Source: Escherichia phage ZL19
Direction: 5' to 3' (one strand)
Sequence record: OM258170
DNA length: 47,884 nucleotides
Under the pieces are notes generated by a model that was not told the origin of the DNA, ran no database searches, and was given only the letters and a program-made list of their open reading frames with translations. The translations under genes and the position numbers were made by a program. Positions 310 through 47,884 of this stretch are shown here, in pieces. How positions within the stretch are numbered: position 1 is the first letter of the stretch; each line of letters begins with the position of its first letter.

Positions 310-348
310 TTTCGCGTAACGACCCCTCAAAGTTACCAAAAATTACAC

Positions 349-377
349 TTGACTACATGTGTAAGTCGGGATATGAT
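349..377 (+). promoter_or_regulatory. sigma70-like promoter TTGACT-17-TATGAT
   Basis: TTGACT 349-354, 17-nt spacer, TATGAT 372-377, ~30 nt upstream of first gene. Confidence 0.6.
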
Positions 378-5422: not shown

Positions 5423-5500
5423 GCTCTGCTAGCTCAACAGGATAGCAGCAACGACCTTCTAAGTCGTAGGTTACTGGTTCGAATCCAGTGCGGAGCGCCA
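5423..5500 (+). tRNA. tRNA-Arg (anticodon UCU), CCA encoded
   Basis: 7-bp acceptor stem GCTCTGC/GCGGAGC, anticodon stem ACGAC/GTCGT with loop CTTCTAA, T-arm ACTGG-TTCGAAT-CCAGT, GG in D-loop; D-arm atypical (3-bp stem, long loop). Confidence 0.7.
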
Positions 5501-6081: not shown

Positions 6082-6125
6082 CGCCTGTAATATGGTATAA
6101 TCTACCATCAACAAAGGAGGATTAA

Positions 6126-8288: not shown

Positions 8289-8645
8289 ATGGCACGCACT
8301 TCAAAGGCTGTATATCTTGGCAACAACGATGATGTGTATTATGGCTTCACCGTAGGTAAGGAATATGAGATTGTATCGTATACTGATGATGACCTCATTC
8401 TGATCGTTGATGATGATGGCGAATGCCGTGGCATCAATAACGGGGCATTCCACAAGTTCGAACTCTCAGTAACAGAATGCGCAGCCGCAGCCACTGGCAA
8501 TAATAAAAGACCGGATCTCAGATATTACATAAACGGGCATGAGGTTGACATGATTGAGTTCGAAAATGTGCGCTATAAGGTGGATCAGCTTGATGAGGAT
8601 GGCGTAAAATGCGACACAATAAAGTTCGAGGTAAAATTCGAGTAA
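8289..8645 (+). CDS. hypothetical protein with internal duplication (moron-like)
   Basis: Own promoter module and terminator, inserted between TerL and portal; acidic D/E-D-G-x-x-C repeat. Confidence 0.45.
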   Translation: MARTSKAVYLGNNDDVYYGFTVGKEYEIVSYTDDDLILIVDDDGECRGINNGAFHKFELSVTECAAAATGNNKRPDLRYYINGHEVDMIEFENVRYKVDQLDEDGVKCDTIKFEVKFE

Positions 8646-14708: not shown

Positions 14709-15138
14709 AAACATGGGGAGTGTAGTTACGTTTGAGAAATCTATTGCTGACTGGATTGACAGAGCGGAGGATGGTTTTGGGATTGTGGTATCCAATACGG
14801 TTATCAAGACAGCAAACGCAATTGTTGACCTTTCACCCGTCGATACCGGCAGATTCAAGGCTAACTGGCAAATCTCCGCAAACTCACCAGCTCAGCAGTC
14901 ACTCAATGAGTACGACCAGACTGGCGGCCAGACCAAAACATATCTCGCCAGACAGGCTAGAGCGGTTGCCAACTCAAAAGCTACAAGTGTTATTTATATC
15001 ACCAATCGACTTGATTACGCGGTCGACCTTGAATACGGAGCTTCAAGCCAGGCTCCAGCTGGCGTTTTAGGTGTGGTGCAAGCAAGGCTGGGTAGGTATT
15101 TCCAGGAAGCAGTAGAGGAGGCTCGCCGTGCAATATGA
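14701..15138 (+). CDS. neck/tail component (putative)
   Basis: Track ORF 14608 trimmed to ATG overlapping upstream stop. Confidence 0.4.
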   Translation: MARNMGSVVTFEKSIADWIDRAEDGFGIVVSNTVIKTANAIVDLSPVDTGRFKANWQISANSPAQQSLNEYDQTGGQTKTYLARQARAVANSKATSVIYITNRLDYAVDLEYGASSQAPAGVLGVVQARLGRYFQEAVEEARRAI

Positions 15139-17269: not shown

Positions 17270-20245
17270 ATGGCAACAAATGAATTAGCCGGAATCACAC
17301 TAGCCGTAGACGTCTCGCAGGTAGACAGAGGTACACAGTCCCTGCGGAAGTTCAGGCAGGCAAACCAGCAGGCCGCTTCCGGCATTAGTGAGTTCGTCAA
17401 CGCCGAGCAGGTTGCAAAGAATCAAGCCAGAGACACAGCTCGCGCACTGGCTGAACAGCAATCATCTTTGGCTAAATTGCAAACGGCTATTGACCCAACT
17501 GCGGCAAAGTTCCGTAAACTCCAGGAGGCTGCTGTAGGTCTTGATAAGGCTTTCGCGGCTGGAGTAGTTCCTGATGAGGAGTTTTTCCGCTTAGGTGAGG
17601 CGCTTGAAACGCAGAACGCAAAACTTGCTCGTTCACGTGCGGCACTAACTGAAGAGGGTAGAGCGGCGGCGCAAGCTGCAAAGGATAAGGCAAAGGCAAA
17701 GGCTGAAGCGGATAGATTCATTGCATCACTTGAGCGTCAGGCTCAGGCGGCAACATTGACGCGAGAGGAGTACCTAAAGTTACAAGCGGCCCAGCTTGGC
17801 GTAAGTTCTCAGGCGGCGCCTATTATTGACAGAATCGCCGATGTATCACGGAAGGCAAACACCCAGCTAATTGCTCAGAGCAAGGCCTTTCAACGCTCTG
17901 GCTTAAGCGCAGGTCAATACAAGGCTGCAATCTCTCAATTGCCAGCGCAGATTACAGATATTGGGACATCACTTGCTGGCGGCATTCCGATTTGGCTTAT
18001 TGCAATTCAGCAAGGTGGACAAATTAAGGATGCATTTGGAGGTATTGGTAACACATTTAGTTTTGCGCTTGCTGCTTTAAACCCGTTCAACGTAGCAGTT
18101 GGGGTTCTCGGTGGCGCGCTTGTTGCTTTAGGCGTCGGTGCTGCGCAGGCTGAAAGTGAATTCAGGGCGTTAAACTCCGCCATTGCGTTCTCAAACAACT
18201 CCACAATCGCATCAATCTCGCAGGTTAGAGAGTTGGTTAGCTCTGTTTCTGATGCCACTGGTGCAACCAGAGGACTTGTGACTAGCATCGCAACAAGCCT
18301 TGTTGAGCAAGGAAACCTTACGCTAACGCAGATTGACAAGATTACTAAATCAACAGCCAGATGGGCTCAGTTGACAGGTAAGGATGCAAAGGAAATTACT
18401 GGTTACTATAACCAGATTGCGAGCGACCCAATTCAAGGACTTGCTGATTTAGACAAGAGGTTTAACTTCCTTACACAGGGGCAGTTAACAACAATTGAAA
18501 GATTGAGGGAGACTAGGGGTGAGGTTGAAGCCGTAACTGCTGCTATTGATATATTTAGCAAATCACAAGAGGCAAACCTTAACGATATTGCAGCCCAGCT
18601 TACTCCTCTTGAATTGGCCTGGAATGACTTCAGGAAGTACATATCTGATGTATGGGATGCAATTAGTCGCAGAACGGTTGGGGCGCTAAACCTGTTTGTT
18701 GACGTAATCGCCGGAACAATTGAGCAAATTAGGGTCTTCATCAACCAGGGTGATGTGCTGATTGGTGAATTCGTAATTAGCGCAACACAGGCACTGCAGA
18801 ACATCCCCGGCCTTGATGGTGTTGGTGATGATGTTGTCAAGGGACAGCAGAAGATTATCGATGCCGCTAAGAAGCAAAACATTGAGCTAGAGAAGTCTAT
18901 CAAGGAGCGCGATGCCAGAATCAGAGAAGGAGAACTTGGCTACGTTACTCGCAGAGAAAATCAGAATACCAATGAGCAGTCAGGCACGGATGAGGAGTTT
19001 GCAAAAAGGAAGAAAGCGCTTCAGGATGAACTTGATGCGATCAAGAAGAGCAGGAAAGAAGAAAATGGTAGGGTTAAAGAGCAAAGAGACCTTACAATTG
19101 GTTACGAATCTGGCGTACTTGCACTACAGGCACAACTCAAGGTGCTTCAGGAAAACAGGGATATTGGCGCAGTAATAAGCAATGAGCGCAAGCAGTATCT
19201 TCAGGAGGTTGCAAAATTCCAGATTCTTGAGCAAAGGCAGCGTGATGGCTCAATAAAAAAAGAGCAAGCAAGACTTCTCATTGAAAAGGATAAAGTTCTT
19301 GAGTTGGCCAGGCAGAAGGCTGAGCTAGGTGATCAGATTGTTTTGCAAGAAAGAGCCAATAAGTTGGCTGAAGATAACCGCAAGAAGATTCTTCAGATTA
19401 ACAATGAGGCAAGCAATATTGATTTGGGTACTGGATTATCATCTCGTGAACTGCAAAGAGCCAAAGAGATTCAGGCTCTTCAGTCCAATCAGGTCAATGC
19501 TGGTGGCTCTCTTGATGACGTTGATTTTCAGCAGCTACTGGAAGCAAGACGTAACTTTTATGCCCAGGAGGATGCGCTACGTGAAAACTGGCTCGCTGGT
19601 GTGAATCAATCCTTTGCCAATTGGGCTGAGAGCGCGACGGATGCATTCTCAATTGCTGGAAGTTTAACCACAACAGTCTTTGAAGGCATTACCGACCAGA
19701 TTACAAACCTCGTAACAACTGGCGAAACAAACTTCAGAGAGTTTACTGTTAGCATCCTTAAACAGATTGCTAAGATTGCAACCCAACTTCTTATTGTTAA
19801 GGCTATAGAGTCTAGCTTAAGTAGCTTCGGTGGTACTGGTGGCGCTATTGGTTCAATTTCTTCAGGTCTTGGTTTCGCTGGCGGCGGCTACACTGGTAAT
19901 GGCGGGAAATACCAACCAGCAGGTACTGTACATAAGGGTGAGTTTGTATTCACAAAAGAAGCGACTAGCAGAATTGGTGTTAAGAACCTTTACGCACTAA
20001 TGAAGGGATACGCAAACGGTGGCGCTGTAGGTGGTCCATCTGGTTATGCTAATGGTGGCTATGTTTCCGGCGGCTCGGATATTAATGTTAGTGGCATCAC
20101 TGTTAACGTTAATGGTGGCGTTGGTAGCGACCCAGAACAAGCTAAGGCGCTGCAAAGCGGAGTCAGGGCTATCGTAGCAGAGGAGATTGCTCAGTCCTTC
20201 CAGCAGGGCGGAAAAGCTTATCAGTACCTTCGCGGATTCAACTAA
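17270..20245 (+). CDS. tail tape measure protein
   Basis: 991 aa, Ala/Gln-rich coiled-coil with Gly-rich C-terminus, GGAGG RBS. Confidence 0.85.
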
Positions 20246-30052: not shown

Positions 30053-30095
30053 AATATACCCAAAGATAGCTAGTTGTCTTTAGCAATTGGTGCTA
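30053..30095 (-). promoter_or_regulatory. palindrome-type promoter module (minus strand) for Rha gene
   Basis: Motif TAGCACCAATTGCTA on minus strand, -10 TATATT at 30053-30058. Confidence 0.5.
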
Positions 30096-30122
30096 TTTAT
30101 CGCCAATTCCACCATAAATCAC

Positions 30123-30215: not shown

Positions 30216-30220
30216 AAAAT

Positions 30221-30270
30221 ATCTATATATATCAACCTTTTACTCTTATTATTATTATTATATATATTAC
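30221..30270. repeat. (TA)n and (ATT)n microsatellite, AT-rich
   Basis: ATCTATATATAT and 5x ATT then TATATAT. Confidence 0.8.
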
Positions 30271-32944: not shown

Positions 32945-32970
32945 CCCCGCCTCCGCGGGGTTTTTGTTTT
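32945..32970. terminator. bidirectional terminator
   Basis: CCCCGC-CTCC-GCGGGG hairpin plus T-run, between convergent SSB and tailspike genes. Confidence 0.65.
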
Positions 32971-35533
32971 ATATTGGATAATTAGATACCTTGATGTCAG
33001 AAAAAATTGTTGTTCCGGTAAGCGCAGAATCAGCGTCAGATGCAGCTGCCGGAGCTAAAAGTATTTCAACCGCAGCACAATTCGCATTAGTCACTGCATA
33101 TATAAGAGACTTCAATTCCCATGACGAGTTAGGAACTAAAGGTCTGTAAGTATTAACCAGTGCAGCTCCAGATGAATCAAGTTCTCTGAATATCACAGAG
33201 GCGACACTCGAACTACCACGTAGAACATACAAATCAAGATAAACCCAACCTTTTGTCGACGCAAGAATTGTAGCAACACTAAGAGACTGAATGCTGGCCC
33301 TATTTTCGTCGCCCAATGTAAACGCATATCCGGTTCCCAGGGGCCACGAAGCGCTATCGGTTTTTTTTGGAGCAGTGCTTGTGACATTTTTTAACAGTCT
33401 GTCGTAATTTAAGTAATTTGGTTTTACTACAGAGTATGGTTTGTTCCCATGGTATGTTATTGAACTGCTAGATACCTTTGTTTTACCGTTATTATTATTG
33501 ACAACGCCTGATAATGTTACATTGTGGCCTGTATCGACATTGAGGTCATAGGAGTTGTCGTACGACATAGCGGAACCTTGCGTGTTATCGGTAGGTACTA
33601 TCTCAGCGAGCGTAGTACCGTCTATTCTACCGCGAACCAGTTCCCATGACACCGCCGCGCCGTTGCAAAACTTAGCCCACACACCATCAACAGTGCAATG
33701 TGATGTATTTGCTAACCTAATGGCACTGTTGTTAACTCGTTCAATACTCGCTGAAAGGATATTTATATAGAGACTTTGATGGTAATTAGTTTCGCTTGGA
33801 TACTTATAATCCGTCACGAAAAGACCTGCTTGACCTGCCCGTGAAGCAGGTGACGCACTGTATCGGAAGCCCTCAATTGTTATATGCTCTCCCTGTACTT
33901 CCAGGTAGTTCTTTGTGGTCTGGGATGCCCCCGTCTGTACACCTTCGTTTGAAGAAGTGAATACCCCATAGCTAGAACCATCAGTACTATGGTGGCAGTC
34001 ATTCATATCGTATGTTTGACACCCATCAATAATCCAATGCTCACAACCACGCTTAAGATCTGCCAGGGTTCGGTGGCCATTGGCCGTACTATTACGACAT
34101 ACAATATTTTTAATTGTGTACGTTCCGTAAGGCCCTGGCGCGTCAATAGTTCCATTCATGCATTTGAATGCGTTGAATCCAATCGCAGTAACTGTTGGGT
34201 CTGTACCCTCAGACGAGCAGTTAATATAGCGTATACCGTCAATCTTCCCACCACCTGTGGTATAGCCTTCCCACGCCTCATGAGGGCAATTTTTAAAGTG
34301 ACAACCGTTAGCCTCTATATCACGGATAATATTACCGACACCGTCACTGTGCCAGCAAAAAGCGCGAATCAGGTTTTCGGATGGAGTTGAATACCCACCC
34401 TGATACTGACCGTCAAATCCGATATTCTCCAGGCGCGCGAAGGTTAGCCCCGTGGCTGGGTTCTTTCTGGAAAACCAGGCATACACACTACCATAGTTAC
34501 CAGAATACGCAGCACCTAATGCAGTTCTCGTCAGGGTTAATGGTTTGATTGTAGTGTTGAACCTTCCGTTGGATTTCCAGTGGAAAAAATCTCCAACTCT
34601 GACCATGCCAGAGAAAACAACCTCTTCAATGCCACTAAAATCTATTGGTAAGCGAAGTGACTCTGATAGATCCTGTATCTCTTGGATTATAGAAGAACAA
34701 TCAACCCCGCTAACAACACCGTATAGTTTTGCTGAAATCACGCCAGAAGAGGATGCGAAATTCCCTATGTGTAACGCTCCTTTTTCAGATGCAAGCTCAC
34801 TTCTCAAAGCAGCATCGCCAACACTAACCCACGCCCCTAATTCAATCCCACCAGTGCTATCTGGGGTTGAACCACCTGGAAACATCTTTGGCAATGATCC
34901 AGTCCATATATAAGACTTAACATCGCTTCCATTGACGTATAAAACCTGCTGATTTTTAGACTCTAGCGTTCCTCCATCTGAGAAGTTTAAAGTTAATGAC
35001 CCAGACACAGAATTTGCCGCTGCCTCTGCTCTATCGGCGGCAGATGATGCATTGGTAGCGTTAATTTGTGATGATGATACATCATTTGAAACCTGTGTTG
35101 CATCACTTGAAACCTGCGCACCAATAGAAACAACATCACCATGCTGAGTGTTTACCTGAGCTACCTTCGATTCAAAATCCGCAGAGTCAAAGTTGTTAAA
35201 AGCATCAACGGCATCTGCAACTTCTGTTTCTCGAGACTGATAATATCGAAGCGTTTCAGCAACATCCTGAGCCAAACCCTGAACGGTAATCCCATCGTGT
35301 GCAAGAATCGCGTAACCAGTTCCGGCAGGAACAGTTTCAGAATTAGGATTATAAACATTAACCTGAGTGTCGCTGATAATTTCTGAGATAGTGTAAATCT
35401 GTACTGGTTCAGTTTTGAAAACAATGGTAGCACCAATGCGAATCAGTGTAAGCGGCGCTTTCCATGTCGTTCCTACGCCAGTTACCTCGCCATTCGCGGC
35501 TAGCGATGCTGTTCCTAAGTCATAAATTGCCAT
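32969..35533 (-). CDS. tail fibre / tailspike protein (depolymerase-type, putative)
   Basis: ~854 aa from ATG 35533 (GGAGA RBS); Gly/Asn/Ser-rich central region; track ORF starts at upstream GTG. Confidence 0.65.
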   Translation of the reverse strand: MAIYDLGTASLAANGEVTGVGTTWKAPLTLIRIGATIVFKTEPVQIYTISEIISDTQVNVYNPNSETVPAGTGYAILAHDGITVQGLAQDVAETLRYYQSRETEVADAVDAFNNFDSADFESKVAQVNTQHGDVVSIGAQVSSDATQVSNDVSSSQINATNASSAADRAEAAANSVSGSLTLNFSDGGTLESKNQQVLYVNGSDVKSYIWTGSLPKMFPGGSTPDSTGGIELGAWVSVGDAALRSELASEKGALHIGNFASSSGVISAKLYGVVSGVDCSSIIQEIQDLSESLRLPIDFSGIEEVVFSGMVRVGDFFHWKSNGRFNTTIKPLTLTRTALGAAYSGNYGSVYAWFSRKNPATGLTFARLENIGFDGQYQGGYSTPSENLIRAFCWHSDGVGNIIRDIEANGCHFKNCPHEAWEGYTTGGGKIDGIRYINCSSEGTDPTVTAIGFNAFKCMNGTIDAPGPYGTYTIKNIVCRNSTANGHRTLADLKRGCEHWIIDGCQTYDMNDCHHSTDGSSYGVFTSSNEGVQTGASQTTKNYLEVQGEHITIEGFRYSASPASRAGQAGLFVTDYKYPSETNYHQSLYINILSASIERVNNSAIRLANTSHCTVDGVWAKFCNGAAVSWELVRGRIDGTTLAEIVPTDNTQGSAMSYDNSYDLNVDTGHNVTLSGVVNNNNGKTKVSSSSITYHGNKPYSVVKPNYLNYDRLLKNVTSTAPKKTDSASWPLGTGYAFTLGDENRASIQSLSVATILASTKGWVYLDLYVLRGSSSVASVIFRELDSSGAALVNTYRPLVPNSSWELKSLIYAVTNANCAAVEILLAPAAASDADSALTGTTIFSDIKVSNYPI

Positions 35534-35557
35534 TGTGTAAAGTCTCCATATGTAAAA

Positions 35558-35602
35558 TAGCACGAATTGCTAAAGTGGATTGTAGCATCTTTCAGGTATA
35601 AA
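35558..35602 (+). promoter_or_regulatory. palindrome-type module in plus orientation, function ambiguous
   Basis: TAGCACGAATTGCTA 35558-35572 with TATAAA at 35597-35602; no plus-strand gene downstream; 25 nt upstream of tailspike ATG on minus strand. Confidence 0.35.
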
Positions 35603-35623
35603 AAAAACCTCCCGAAGGAGGTT
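35598..35623 (-). terminator. intrinsic terminator of primase gene
   Basis: AACCTCC-CGAA-GGAGGTT hairpin followed by T8 on minus strand. Confidence 0.65.
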
Positions 35624-36596
35624 AGCTGTTCAATAAATCACTTGCCTTATATATCTTCTTCCTGATTCCGCTCTTGAATGAGTATTCATCATTTGGTATT
35701 ACCACATCAAGATTCCTCTCATCAGCAACGCAAAGCAATTCCCTATCAAGATAGCAAGCAACTCTTAACTTGAAATCTTTGAGTGCGTAAGCAACCATCT
35801 CCATGTTGTAGCTAGAGTGGCAAACAAGTACACATCGGTTGCCAGTAGCAAGATGAACACGAATACCATCAATCCAATTATCCACAAGATAAGCGTACTC
35901 ATCACTTTTAAAGGAACCAATAACAGCAACTGACTGGCGTGTGTAATATTTTGCAGCATAACTAACACCTCCCTCCTCGTTAATAAACATTACATTGCAC
36001 ATTTCTTCTGATATACCGTCACTATAAACCATAAAGCACGGTATTGCGTGTATTATTTCACCGGATTTTGTCCTGCCAACATCAAAACCAAACTCGCTAT
36101 AGATACCCTCGTATGTACTGAGCGGGGTTGATTCTACTCTTTCAGTCCTCTCCATTATCTCTAAGCATCTCTCGTGGTCAATTTGAGCGCCCATTTTGTA
36201 GAGCTTGGTTCTTGATGCTTGCTTGTTTGCCTTGTTAACAACCTCAACAGGGATAAGGCTTAACCACCCACCGAGAACATCGATACATTCACTAAATGAC
36301 TCACCTCGCATTTTCTGGACCCAAACAACACCATCTCCTGAACCGCATTGGTTGCAGATAATTCCACCATCACCATCTTCGCTAACCTTATTAGTCCATC
36401 TTGCGCGATCGTTGCCGCCGCAATAAATGCACGGCTGATGCTTTTTGGTCTGGAAAAACTTAGGGTCAGCGCCGCAGATGTTGATAAGTGCTTTATCCCA
36501 CAGGCCGCGCATTCTTGGTATAACTTCTTTCTTATCGTAGTGCATATCAATCTGTCTCTTAACAAATAAAAAAAGGATGTACCGATTATGGCACAT
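35622..36596 (-). CDS. DNA primase (zinc-ribbon + TOPRIM-like)
   Basis: CIYCGG...CNQCGSGDG zinc-ribbon motif; start could be M18 at 36545. Confidence 0.55.
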   Translation of the reverse strand: MCHNRYILFLFVKRQIDMHYDKKEVIPRMRGLWDKALINICGADPKFFQTKKHQPCIYCGGNDRARWTNKVSEDGDGGIICNQCGSGDGVVWVQKMRGESFSECIDVLGGWLSLIPVEVVNKANKQASRTKLYKMGAQIDHERCLEIMERTERVESTPLSTYEGIYSEFGFDVGRTKSGEIIHAIPCFMVYSDGISEEMCNVMFINEEGGVSYAAKYYTRQSVAVIGSFKSDEYAYLVDNWIDGIRVHLATGNRCVLVCHSSYNMEMVAYALKDFKLRVACYLDRELLCVADERNLDVVIPNDEYSFKSGIRKKIYKASDLLNS

Positions 36597-36604
36597 CCCA
36601 TTCT

Positions 36605-37078
36605 TTACTCTTTAGCTTTTCGTGCTGCCTCGTTGGCGGCCTTAATCTTACGCCATGATCGACACTCTGGCTTGGTGGCTAATTCAGCTTCGGTAACCAC
36701 GCGCAGCATATGACGCTTTTTGCAACGTAGTGTAAGAGGCTTGCCGTTACCGTCGAATTGCAGGTCTGGTCGGCAGAATGTAGCTCGAAAACCTTCTCCG
36801 GTTCGTTTGTAGTAGTTGTGCGACAGCTGAGCACCACGCGCAGAAATCATACCACGATTGAACCATTCTTCTACAGTTTGGGGAGTTACCTTTAACTGCT
36901 TTGCGATGTTTGCCTTTGTTCCGAAGAAATCAAGGAGCATCTCAAGCCGTGCGCGTAACCCTGCCCTTACCTCGTCTTTTAAAACGTAGTAGCCTGAAGG
37001 TCGTTTCCGTTGTTTTTTGTCTTCAGTGCGGATGGTTCCGTTATTACCGTTAGTGGTTCGCTTGTCAACTGCACTCAT
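36605..37078 (-). CDS. HTH DNA-binding protein (putative regulator)
   Basis: Basic protein with helix-turn-helix-like IAKQLKVTPQTVEEWFNRG; ATG with GAGGT RBS; divergent from helicase. Confidence 0.5.
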   Translation of the reverse strand: MSAVDKRTTNGNNGTIRTEDKKQRKRPSGYYVLKDEVRAGLRARLEMLLDFFGTKANIAKQLKVTPQTVEEWFNRGMISARGAQLSHNYYKRTGEGFRATFCRPDLQFDGNGKPLTLRCKKRHMLRVVTEAELATKPECRSWRKIKAANEAARKAKE

Positions 37079-37091
37079 TTTGTTACCTCGA

Positions 37092-37133
37092 TAGCATTTT
37101 TTGTTAAAAGTCATTCTTATTTGATGGTAGTAT
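37092..37133 (+). promoter_or_regulatory. palindrome-type promoter module (variant) for helicase
   Basis: TAGCATTTTTTGTTA 37092-37106, -10 TAGTAT 37128-37133. Confidence 0.45.
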
Positions 37134-37179
37134 TGTACTCAATTAAACGCTACAAGACAATTTTTATAGGAATTTAGAT

Positions 37180-46486: not shown

Positions 46487-46508
46487 TCTGTTTTAGCAAT
46501 TCGTGCTA
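46466..46508 (-). promoter_or_regulatory. palindrome-type promoter module (minus strand)
   Basis: Motif TAGCACGAATTGCTA on minus strand at 46494-46508, -10 TATTAT 46466-46471. Confidence 0.5.
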
Positions 46509-46653
46509 TTTCGTGCCTTTTCTATCGCCTTGAGCATAATTTCATGACTCTCAAGCAAGTCTTCGCGAAACCAGTCGCCGCAGGGCCAACCCTTTCCGCT
46601 GTAGGCGCTAATAACTTCCAGATCGAAATAATTTATCTCAGATGGTAGAAGCA

Positions 46654-47411: not shown

Positions 47412-47454
47412 ACTATACTTCTTTTCTTTACTGCTGTTTTAACATTTCGTGCTA
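47412..47454 (-). promoter_or_regulatory. palindrome-type promoter module (minus strand, variant)
   Basis: Motif TAGCACGAAATGTTA on minus strand at 47440-47454, -10 TATAGT at 47412-47417. Confidence 0.45.
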
Positions 47455-47652
47455 TTTAATAACTTTCCACTTCATTTACTTCTTTCGAGGAACCCGGTCA
47501 GACTTTGCTGCCGGAGAAGGTGTCTGGGAGTTTACCTATTCGGAAGTGACTCAACGTGCCCTTTCTCAACACTCGCCAGCATTTTTCATCTGGACGATTC
47601 GACCTCTGGGAGGCAGCTACTTGGCGTTCGCTTCACTGCTTCCTTGAGGTAC
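47455..47652 (-). ncRNA. candidate non-coding transcript between two promoter modules
   Basis: ~200 nt downstream of minus-strand promoter 47653-47695 without an RBS-preceded ORF; speculative. Confidence 0.25.
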
Positions 47653-47695
47653 ATATTACCAGTTTCTTGATTTATGTCTTTAGCAAAAAGTGCTA
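47653..47695 (-). promoter_or_regulatory. palindrome-type promoter module (minus strand)
   Basis: Motif TAGCACTTTTTGCTA on minus strand at 47681-47695, -10 TAATAT at 47653-47658. Confidence 0.45.
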
Positions 47696-47715
47696 TTCGT
47701 CAGATTTATGGATTG

Positions 47716-47796
47716 TTGCAGATATTGCAATGATTTAGATGACTATTGCACATATAGCAATATTTCTTCATATGCAATGATGTTTTTGATTGTTGC
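47716..47796. repeat. cluster of inverted and direct repeats (TTGCA-N5-TGCAA, ATTGC-N7-GCAAT, TGCAATGAT x2, GATTGTTGC x2)
   Basis: Palindromes at 47716-47730 and 47745-47761 plus direct repeats, non-coding, near window end. Confidence 0.6.
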
Positions 47797-47884
47797 GAAA
47801 AGTGAAATGAATTGGGGAGCGAGTGAATGAAAGATTGATGGACTACCATACAAGTTGATTTTGATTCTGGGTGAACCATTTTTG

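Follow-up and report, generated by a model that had tools for sequence, protein, structure and literature searches.

A conserved palindrome past an extended −10 promoter as a putative operator of the tailspike gene in Escherichia phage ZL19

Escherichia phage ZL19 (sequence record OM258170, analyzed here as a single window of 47,884 nt) is an Rtp-like coliphage of the Drexlerviridae, the T1 superfamily, with relatives in the Braunvirinae. We consider here a 20-nt palindrome (35555–35574) that lies between its primase and tailspike genes and is one copy of a motif found throughout the genome. The surrounding region (35000–36700) is 99.8% identical to Escherichia phage TR3 and 79–88% identical to Rtp, SU57, ACG-M12 and other Braunvirinae. 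The genes on the minus strand follow in the order regulator (36605–37078), DNA primase (35622–36545; Pfam Zn_Ribbon_Prim) and tailspike or lateral tail fibre (32969–35533), with a helicase gene diverging from them on the plus strand from 37180. The tailspike gene codes for 854 aa from the ATG at 35533 (start codon 35531–35533), displays the Pfam Tail_spike_N domain (E = 7e-17), and has homologs annotated either as tail spike or as lateral tail fibre.

The junction between the last two genes is compact. Reading along the minus strand, the primase gene ends in an intrinsic terminator (35598–35623), AACCTCC-TTCG-GGAGGTT followed by TTTTTTAT, with a stem-loop at 35606–35623, a T-run on the minus strand, and the primase stop codon (35622–35624) inside the stem. 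A terminator is annotated at the matching place in SU57, ETEP102, AKS96 and Stevie. It is followed by an extended −10 element, by the palindrome and by the tailspike Shine–Dalgarno (SD) sequence GGAGA (35543–35547, minus strand), the homologous position of which is annotated as a ribosome-binding site in SU57. The authors of the SU57 genome saw no visible route for transcription of the tail spike gene behind this terminator, doubted that it is transcribed at all, and proposed recombination at the locus (PMC7718038).

The minus strand between the terminator and the palindrome reads TGCTACAAT (35587→35579), with the hexamer TACAAT at 35584→35579, and combines TG at −15/−14, T at −12, A at −11 and T at −7. 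We propose this element (35579–35587) as a sigma70 promoter, P_ts, the −35 region of which falls in the terminator T-run. By standard sigma70 geometry, the tailspike mRNA is predicted to start 6–8 nt past the hexamer, at 35571–35573 on the minus strand, which places it on the first bases of the palindrome core. P_ts is unmarked in all the annotated records that we examined and was overlooked in the first-pass annotation of this stretch; a simple promoter scanner also leaves it unlisted, as it demands a match to the −35 hexamer.

We gauged the conservation of the junction by aligning 13 Rtp-like genomes. Additional upstream regions came from 15 more distant phages, located through the N-terminus of the tail fibre protein (tblastn), and from 22 IMG/VR contigs recovered with a DNA pattern scan; retrieval of the locus from IMG/VR by way of the primase gave nine loci only. 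These comparisons revealed three features. First, in the 13 Rtp-like genomes, conservation within the junction is highest in the terminator, the extended −10 element and the palindrome, with 84%, 67% and 70% (14/20) invariant columns, respectively, against 37% in the 3' coding part of the primase and 11% at the third-codon positions of the tailspike gene. The excess over third-codon positions is indicative of purifying selection on both the palindrome and the extended −10 element. Second, the pattern TGnTAnnnT is found in all 25 distinct upstream regions that bear the palindrome, and also in Rogunavirus, Webervirus and Hanrivervirus, which have no palindrome there. It sits 11–13 nt past the T-run of an upstream terminator in 14 of the 17 distinct types of upstream region from Drexlerviridae-like phages, and its distribution spans the Braunvirinae, Tunavirinae (T1), Rogunavirinae, Webervirus, Hanrivervirus, Warwickvirus and unclassified Yersinia and E. 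coli LF82 phages. Third, six variants of the hexamer occur over at least seven lineages (TACAAT, TAAAAT, TATAAT, TATACT, TAGAAT and TATTAT), with the TG, T−12, A−11 and T−7 constant in each. The element takes the form TGATAAAAT in T1, where there is additionally a TTGCAA as −35 at 17 nt, TGATACAAT in Rogunavirus, and TGCTATTAT in Webervirus, Hanrivervirus and Warwickvirus, and is also found as TGATATAAT, TGGTATACT and TGATAGAAT. In ETEP102, TACAAT is replaced by TATACT and both flanks are rewritten, with TGCTATACT (the TG and the key −10 bases) and the palindrome core retained. The exceptions to the pattern are two Tlsviruses and Vibrio phage Vc1, which show a −35/−10 pair instead (TTGCAT or TTGCCG, 17 nt, CATAAT), and K62PH164C2, with a TATGAT-like hexamer only and no upstream terminator.

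Exactly those bases stay fixed as the rest of the hexamer drifts, a pattern characteristic of a functional promoter. On these grounds of comparative sequence analysis, P_ts is likely the tailspike promoter, and as such it answers the question raised by the SU57 authors as to how the gene behind the terminator would be transcribed.

The palindrome itself, AAATAGCACGAATTGCTAAA as written on the plus strand, is perfect over its 20 nt, with the dyad core TAGCA-N5-TGCTA at 35558–35572. It is flanked by the tailspike start and the primase terminator and has the plus orientation, just as the first-pass annotation had it. The 15-nt core is strongly enriched in the ZL19 genome, with 22 matches at three or fewer mismatches against 1.67 expected (none of 100 shuffles reaches 22), and six copies of the motif are exact. 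Genome-wide, the motif takes the form of a 19-nt promoter element, ATAGCAC-N5-GCTAAA, accompanied by a TATAGT-like −10. Among the 16 strong copies, the −10 hexamer lies 19 nt past the 19-nt site in 15 (motif position 39) and 18 nt past it in the other one. With the hexamer set at −12 to −7, the dyad centre falls at −42, and there is no −35 hexamer anywhere in the class. This predicted arrangement is the geometry of class II activators, in agreement with what had been suggested for the motif beforehand. Also common to the promoters of this class are a G+C-rich discriminator (TTACCCC) and a start region, CATCGAAACGAG, that is conserved and followed by an SD sequence and a gene on the same strand, and the sequence of the spacer up to the −10 is not conserved. 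The motif can be oriented by its asymmetric flanks and half-sites (ATAGCAC vs. GCTAAA) together with the fixed −10 downstream of 15 of the 16 strong copies. Both structural operons, head and tail (8214+ and 16235+), carry it as a −42 site. The initial transcribed sequence CATCGAAACGAG is present upstream of the SD in 16 promoters (e.g., 3694, 16235, 39592 and 46491–46509), where it could influence initiation efficiency, RNA stability or processing.

To characterize the dyad, we collected 67 promoters of the −42 type from ZL19, Rtp, T1 and AKS96. Of these, 58 have a perfect upstream half (ATAGCAC) and only 37 a perfect downstream half (TTGCTAA). Position 4 is G in every promoter; at the partner position in the dyad, C is found 44 times, T 18 times, A three times and G twice, without compensation. 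Because G4 is fixed while its partner varies in this manner, the palindrome is best described as a predicted protein-binding dyad with unequal half-sites and not as a hairpin. The half-site centres of TAGCA-N5-TGCTA are 10 bp apart, i.e., one helical turn, as expected of a dimer on one face of the helix. The Rogunavirus AKS96 has the palindrome at 14 −42-type promoters in its genome, some of which are labeled in its GenBank record as 'TTGACA(N23)TATAAT' promoters. Two other identities for the motif were considered and rejected. The sigma54 consensus has GG and GC elements in TGGCAC-N5-TTGC; TAGCAC-N3-TTGC differs from a sigma54 (−24/−12) promoter in having AG rather than GG and N3 rather than N5, and it is followed by a sigma70-type −10 at a fixed 19 nt. 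A sigma32-like reading was suggested by a CCCCAT after some of the canonical −10 hexamers, which is not conserved and has no −35 partner.

These data also bear on the proposal that the junction copy acts at the level of nucleic acid structure, either as a 5' stem-loop that stabilizes the tailspike mRNA or as a DNA cruciform or hairpin promoter. The predicted transcript would indeed open with UAGCA-AUUCG-UGCUA, allowing a 5-bp stem at its very 5' end. Against this, the 5' untranslated region folds no better than shuffled sequences (z = +0.5), the stem is missing from the minimum free energy structure, and there is no match in Rfam. Arm changes are never compensated across the 67 copies, and the degenerate copy of Tlsvirus GS156, TAACA/TGCTA, loses a pair. 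A hairpin promoter would further be at odds with the annotations of these phages, which contain no recognizable phage RNA polymerase gene. We therefore regard this explanation as extremely unlikely.

The junction copy stands apart from the rest of its class in what follows it. As noted in the first-pass annotation, it is the sole strong copy (35557) without a gene downstream on the same strand: every other strong copy has one, with long leaders at 30078–30096, 47437–47455 and 47678–47696 (all on the minus strand), and the plus strand downstream of this copy holds only short, non-conserved, mechanically called open reading frames (ORFs). A plus-strand promoter, with a transcript antisense to the primase gene, was one of the two roles envisaged for it there. 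In the fuller form considered here, activator-dependent transcription would run through the terminator and shut primase off late. The copy's perfect consensus, in an oriented form identical to that of the real promoters, speaks for such a promoter, and the terminator hairpin, which has no T-run on the plus strand, would offer no stop to its transcript. We scored the copy with a position weight matrix built from the 16 canonical copies and divided into palindrome, −10 and leader blocks. The palindrome block reaches 31.6 bits, above the canonical median of 27.6. The −10 block, with GGTATA as the hexamer at the canonical spacing, comes to −10.9 bits, to be compared with a canonical median of +8.6 and a random mean of −9.2. 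The plus-strand leader block is at −4.1 bits against a median of 7.5, and the conserved leader is absent. Measured against its own −42 class, the copy thus has the palindrome and lacks the −10, the leader and the downstream gene.

A TATAAA does occur 21 nt downstream (35597–35602), and the −10 block shifted by +2 nt scores 3.0 bits on it. Yet this hexamer is 2 nt out of register with the spacing kept by the strong copies, and it arises simply from the A-run that complements the T-run of the terminator. Neither TATAAA nor CATAAA has the T at −7 that all canonical copies possess. None of the 25 distinct homologous copies has a −10-like hexamer at the canonical plus-strand place. In T1, LF82-19, Yersinia phage YP10S2 and Warwickvirus mar001J1, the terminator is elsewhere or further off, and there, too, nothing −10-like is found at that place. 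Further, the conserved bases in the would-be spacer (ATTGTAGCA) are those of the extended −10 element on the opposite strand, whereas the spacers of real promoters are not conserved. The plus-strand −10 is absent at this copy, and an antisense promoter is very unlikely. We predict with considerable confidence that 35555–35574 is a binding site and not a promoter.

Nor does the copy appear suited to activate the tailspike gene from the usual distance. The palindrome had been placed 25–40 nt upstream of the tailspike ATG, with which the measured 24 nt between core and ATG agrees, and it was rightly judged too close to serve as a −41.5 activator site. Read on the minus strand as a class II site, it has CAATGG 30 nt past its centre, and the nearest −10-like hexamer, CACAAT 28 nt past the centre, would place the start inside the coding sequence, past the conserved ATG and SD.

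The other role envisaged in the first-pass annotation, an operator controlling the tailspike gene, fares considerably better, and the presence of an extended −10 promoter on the tailspike strand makes it concrete. In ZL19, the palindrome core starts 6 nt past the −10 hexamer, so that the site would cover about +1 to +16 of the predicted transcript, inside the footprint of the polymerase. The palindrome likewise accompanies the tailspike gene in T1 and other lineages. Its core lies 6–7 nt past the −10 in all 20 distinct IMG/VR sequences (from the 22 matching contigs) as well as in LF82-19 and YP10S2, at 12 nt in Warwickvirus mar001J1 and at 15 nt in Tlsvirus GS156. Viewed as an extended −10 promoter with an operator, the ZL19 copy shows every feature that can be checked in the DNA, including a dyad with half-sites one turn apart and, given the predicted start, a location within the polymerase footprint. 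The promoter also occurs with no palindrome, and with no better −35, in Rogunavirus, Webervirus, Hanrivervirus and Citrobacter phage Stevie, indicating that the palindrome is an add-on modulator and not a required activator site. Our overall reading, to which we assign a probability of roughly 55%, is that this copy acts as an operator that limits the sigma70 tailspike promoter through a palindrome-binding factor. For the sign of the effect taken alone, a negative influence on the tailspike gene is moderately favored.

The bound factor might instead be positive, aiding tailspike expression by holding the polymerase or remodeling the DNA, or purely insulating, merely blocking read-through from the primase operon and leaving P_ts as the sole driver of the tailspike gene. 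Co-activation of the tailspike gene would be coherent with the apparent activation of the structural operons (8214+ and 16235+) by the same factor, and the fixed orientation of the site, which is constant in all 22 matching IMG/VR contigs (22:0), hints at a directional contact. An insulator would make sense at this spot, just behind a terminator, since a bound protein would back up termination as a roadblock. At bacterial promoters, activators seldom act from a position centred near +9, and a protein at the site considered here overlaps the polymerase footprint, which reaches about +20. The variable distance between the −10 and the site, 6–15 nt among lineages, also argues against a phase-dependent activating contact, and P_ts is unchanged in three lineages that have no site. 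A positive or purely insulating role is hence unlikely in our estimation.

A second alternative denies the site any regulatory role, making it either a relic of a promoter or part of a junction conserved as a homology patch for swaps of the tailspike module. Drexlerviridae genomes vary most at the tail fibre locus, where only the N-terminus of the protein is conserved (PMC8594841), and the recombination suggested for SU57 (PMC7718038), along with the several lineages that have no palindrome, would fit such a view. A relic, however, would be expected to decay in the manner of the third-codon positions, 11% of which are invariant as opposed to the 70% of the palindrome, and a homology patch would have no reason to stay at a constant distance from the −10. 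The core is retained in ETEP102 despite the rewriting of both its flanks, and across subfamilies in which the surroundings cannot be aligned. We consider the absence of a role quite improbable.

As to the factor that would bind the palindrome, the only recognizable DNA-binding protein nearby is encoded two genes upstream of the tailspike gene (36605–37078, minus strand). This candidate regulator of 157 aa is a homolog of Rtp52 and T1 gp23 (PHROG 2856, 'transcriptional regulator', E = 2e-83), and its family is restricted to contigs of ~45–52 kb, a span typical of the Drexlerviridae. In its AlphaFold2 model (predicted local distance difference test score 86), a central all-alpha domain matches the Cro proteins of Xfaso-1 and N15 (3bd1, 2hin/6on0) with a template modeling score of ~0.7 on the target (Foldseek against the PDB). 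The Cro-like domain lies between a strongly conserved, basic N-terminal arm and a C-terminal extension. The Rtp record notes a helix-turn-helix (HTH) in the homolog, Pfam gives only weak hits to P22_Cro (E = 1e-4, below the cutoff) and YdaS, and a search of PDB sequences returned nothing significant, with only the generic Cro HTH emerging from the fold search. Membership in the Mor/C family is not supported: the top Foldseek matches are Cro proteins, and there is no Mor/C protein among the best 50 matches listed. Within the family, invariant residues are concentrated in the N-terminal arm at positions 5–24 (D5, R7, N10, G11, N12, N13, R17, D20 and R24), a segment predicted to be disordered.

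The regulator gene is preceded by its own sigma70 promoter, TTGTCT-17-TACAAT (37132–37160, minus strand), with TTGAAT-17-TATAAT at the same place in T1 and a BPROM promoter annotated in SU57. A weak copy of the palindrome, ATAGCATTTTTTGTTAAAA (37091–37109, plus strand), serves as the −42-type site of the divergent helicase promoter and at the same time lies in the regulator leader, 12 nt from its ATG. This order, a sigma70 promoter followed by a palindrome in the leader, is kept in ZL19, T1, AKS96 and Vibrio phage Vc1, and provides a precedent within the same genomes for a palindrome past a sigma70 promoter. The layout is, on positional evidence, the one typical of an autoregulated phage regulator. 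We slightly favor the Rtp52-like Cro-fold protein as the binder, with its position as the link to the palindrome. The primase promoter, for its part, has a weak palindrome copy, GCAGCACGAAAAGCTAAAG (36610–36628, minus strand), within the 3' end of the regulator gene, and its −10, CATAAT (36585–36590), is in the loop of the regulator terminator hairpin (36574–36599). This interleaving of a terminator and a promoter is kept in the Rtp-like relatives.

Taken together, the operator reading yields the following scheme. The host sigma70 polymerase would start the tailspike mRNA at ~35571–35573 from P_ts. A palindrome-binding factor, probably the Cro-fold regulator acting as a dimer, would occupy 35555–35574 and either exclude the polymerase or block its escape from the promoter, and would also stop read-through from the primase operon, such that tailspike output would be limited or timed. 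A single factor would thereby activate ~17 promoters of the −42 class and repress the tailspike promoter, with the weaker copy of the site in the regulator leader permitting autoregulation. The anatomy of the junction, its conservation and the lack of a plus-strand −10 are observed in the sequences; in this scheme, we infer the transcription start, the binding, the identity of the binder and the sign of the effect. More speculatively, a low stoichiometry of side fibres could account for such a throttle.

Several points weigh against this scheme. First, the head and tail operons use the palindrome at −42, so the factor would have to activate structural genes and yet repress the tailspike gene. 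Second, the recognition helix varies among the regulator homologs (TPQTV, SQQTV and CCVRL), although the DNA motif is unchanged even in Vibrio phage Vc1, the regulator of which has 47% identity. Third, a symmetric operator does not explain the orientation, constant in every lineage (22:0 in IMG/VR), which may reflect simple descent or a need for the strong half-site to be distal to the polymerase as in the −42 promoters, in a mirror geometry. Fourth, the site is dispensable, as seen from the several lineages in which it is missing. Fifth, the −35 region of P_ts is only a T-run with no usable −35. Sixth, the literature searched yielded no transcription-start map and no RNA-seq or binding study of a Drexlerviridae phage. 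Finally, the binder might be a host factor or an early protein of unassigned function such as DUF7174. A near-consensus sigma70 promoter, TTGACT-17-TATGAT (345–373, plus strand), precedes the first rightward gene (ATG at 409, DUF7174). At least one operon can thus do without the palindrome factor, and the proteins it encodes would be further candidates for the binder; the first early proteins under sigma70 control belong to DUF7174 or have no known function.

Beyond ZL19, T1 has palindromes close to the start codons of terS, gp47, gp40 and J. The T1 copies at 8363, 15068–15085, 18832–18849 and 25022 lie from a few to ~55 nt from the start codons of terS, of a tail assembly gene (18832–18849) and of the genes for the major head protein (15068–15085) and a J-like tail protein. 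Both orientations are represented, and most copies follow closely on a −10-like element, which suggests that operators of this type may be more widespread in the T1 lineage. ZL19 itself has a second module of a terminator and an extended −10, TGGTATAAT at 6093–6101 (plus strand), ~12 nt past the T-run and before terS. It has no palindrome, and the equivalent terS promoter of T1, TGGTAAAAT, overlaps one.

An extension of the scheme would make titration of the factor a timer. The Cro-fold factor, made early from its sigma70 promoter and autoregulated, would activate the majority of the phage operons through their −42 sites and also sit on the few starts that are self-sufficient by virtue of sigma70 or extended −10 promoters, namely the tailspike in ZL19 and terS, gp40 and J in T1. 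As each replicated genome contributes ~18 sites, the factor would be soaked up and the operator-type promoters would be freed last. If this held, these phages would have a late class without a dedicated late activator, and the fixed 22:0 orientation would reflect a directional contact between factor and polymerase. We offer this version as a long shot.

The element type, an operator of a dual-function regulator, is textbook and unsurprising in principle. The closest parallel is lambda cI, which at OR activates PRM from a site near −42, with the same operators repressing PR. In common with cI and the lambdoid repressors, the ZL19 system would have a Cro/cI-type HTH (here predicted) on dyads, activation from −42 where the −35 is poor, repression at the core promoter, and a regulator gene that is itself under such a site. 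Unlike lambda, ZL19 is virulent with no lysogeny switch, has ~17 activating sites genome-wide rather than one tripartite operator, and gives no sign of cooperative tandem sites at the tailspike. The regulator, too, differs in its long basic N-terminal arm and C-terminal extension, and has no sequence match to cI or Cro beyond the weak P22_Cro hit.

The −42 class also resembles the Mor/C-dependent middle and late promoters of phage Mu in having a good −10 and no −35. The Mu promoters need a small dimeric phage activator on a dyad just upstream of and overlapping the −35 region (PMC2582627, PMC4287176 and bioRxiv 10.1101/2025.05.02.651988). The predicted fold of the ZL19 regulator is, in contrast, of the Cro type. 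To our knowledge, the Mu activators do not serve as operators on sigma70 promoters. The C proteins of restriction-modification systems are small Xre/Cro-like HTH dimers that activate or repress depending on the palindrome occupied, and C.EcoT38IS is among the weak fold matches of the ZL19 regulator (rank 16). C-boxes are tandem operators at a single promoter, whereas in ZL19 one type of site is found at many promoters and at one transcription start. With the extended −10 (TGn) promoters of the galP1 type, P_ts shares the TG at −15/−14, the A−11 and T−7, and the lack of a recognizable −35. It differs from galP1 in lying ~12 nt past the T-run of an intrinsic terminator, in a module that is repeated at terS (6093–6101) and recurs across the Drexlerviridae.

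The literature searched, which did not extend to the original Rtp and T1 genome papers, contains no description of the motif, of a T1/Rtp promoter class or of a Drexlerviridae transcriptome. Thus, both the palindrome regulon and the module of terminator, extended −10 and operator before the tail fibre gene are undescribed in the searchable literature, with the caveat that those two genome papers may mention the motif. The junction furnishes a concrete account of how Rtp- and T1-like phages would transcribe a tail fibre or tailspike gene stranded behind the primase terminator among the replication genes. It also points to an apparent single-factor regulon that is common to the examined Drexlerviridae of E. 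coli and other hosts, down to a Vibrio phage, and offers a clean entry point to gene regulation in this family. Tailspikes set the host range. When receptor-binding modules are exchanged in these phages for therapeutic or typing purposes, the 90-bp junction is best retained or altered only on purpose, since its terminator, extended −10, operator and SD probably set the dosage of the tailspike.

A few further features of the genome were noted. At the right end, 47437–47455 and 47678–47696 (both minus strand) form a tandem of −42-class promoters with leaders of ~125 nt and >360 nt. These leaders contain no ORF of at least 30 aa before the first leftward gene (47286), and the layout in Rtp is the same. 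Upstream of the promoter at 47678–47696, the non-coding stretch 47705–47800 has a cluster of short inverted repeats of the ATTGCA/TGCAAT type (ATTGTTGCA, ATTGCAATGAT, ATTGCACATATAGCAAT, ATGCAATGAT and ATTGTTGC), which might constitute an additional operator family, or else an origin or a packaging signal. Simple-sequence tracts of (TA)n and (ATT)n are found at two distant intergenic places (95–146 and 30218–30260), and a tRNA-Arg with the anticodon TCT is encoded at 5423–5500 on the plus strand, as in other T1-like phages.

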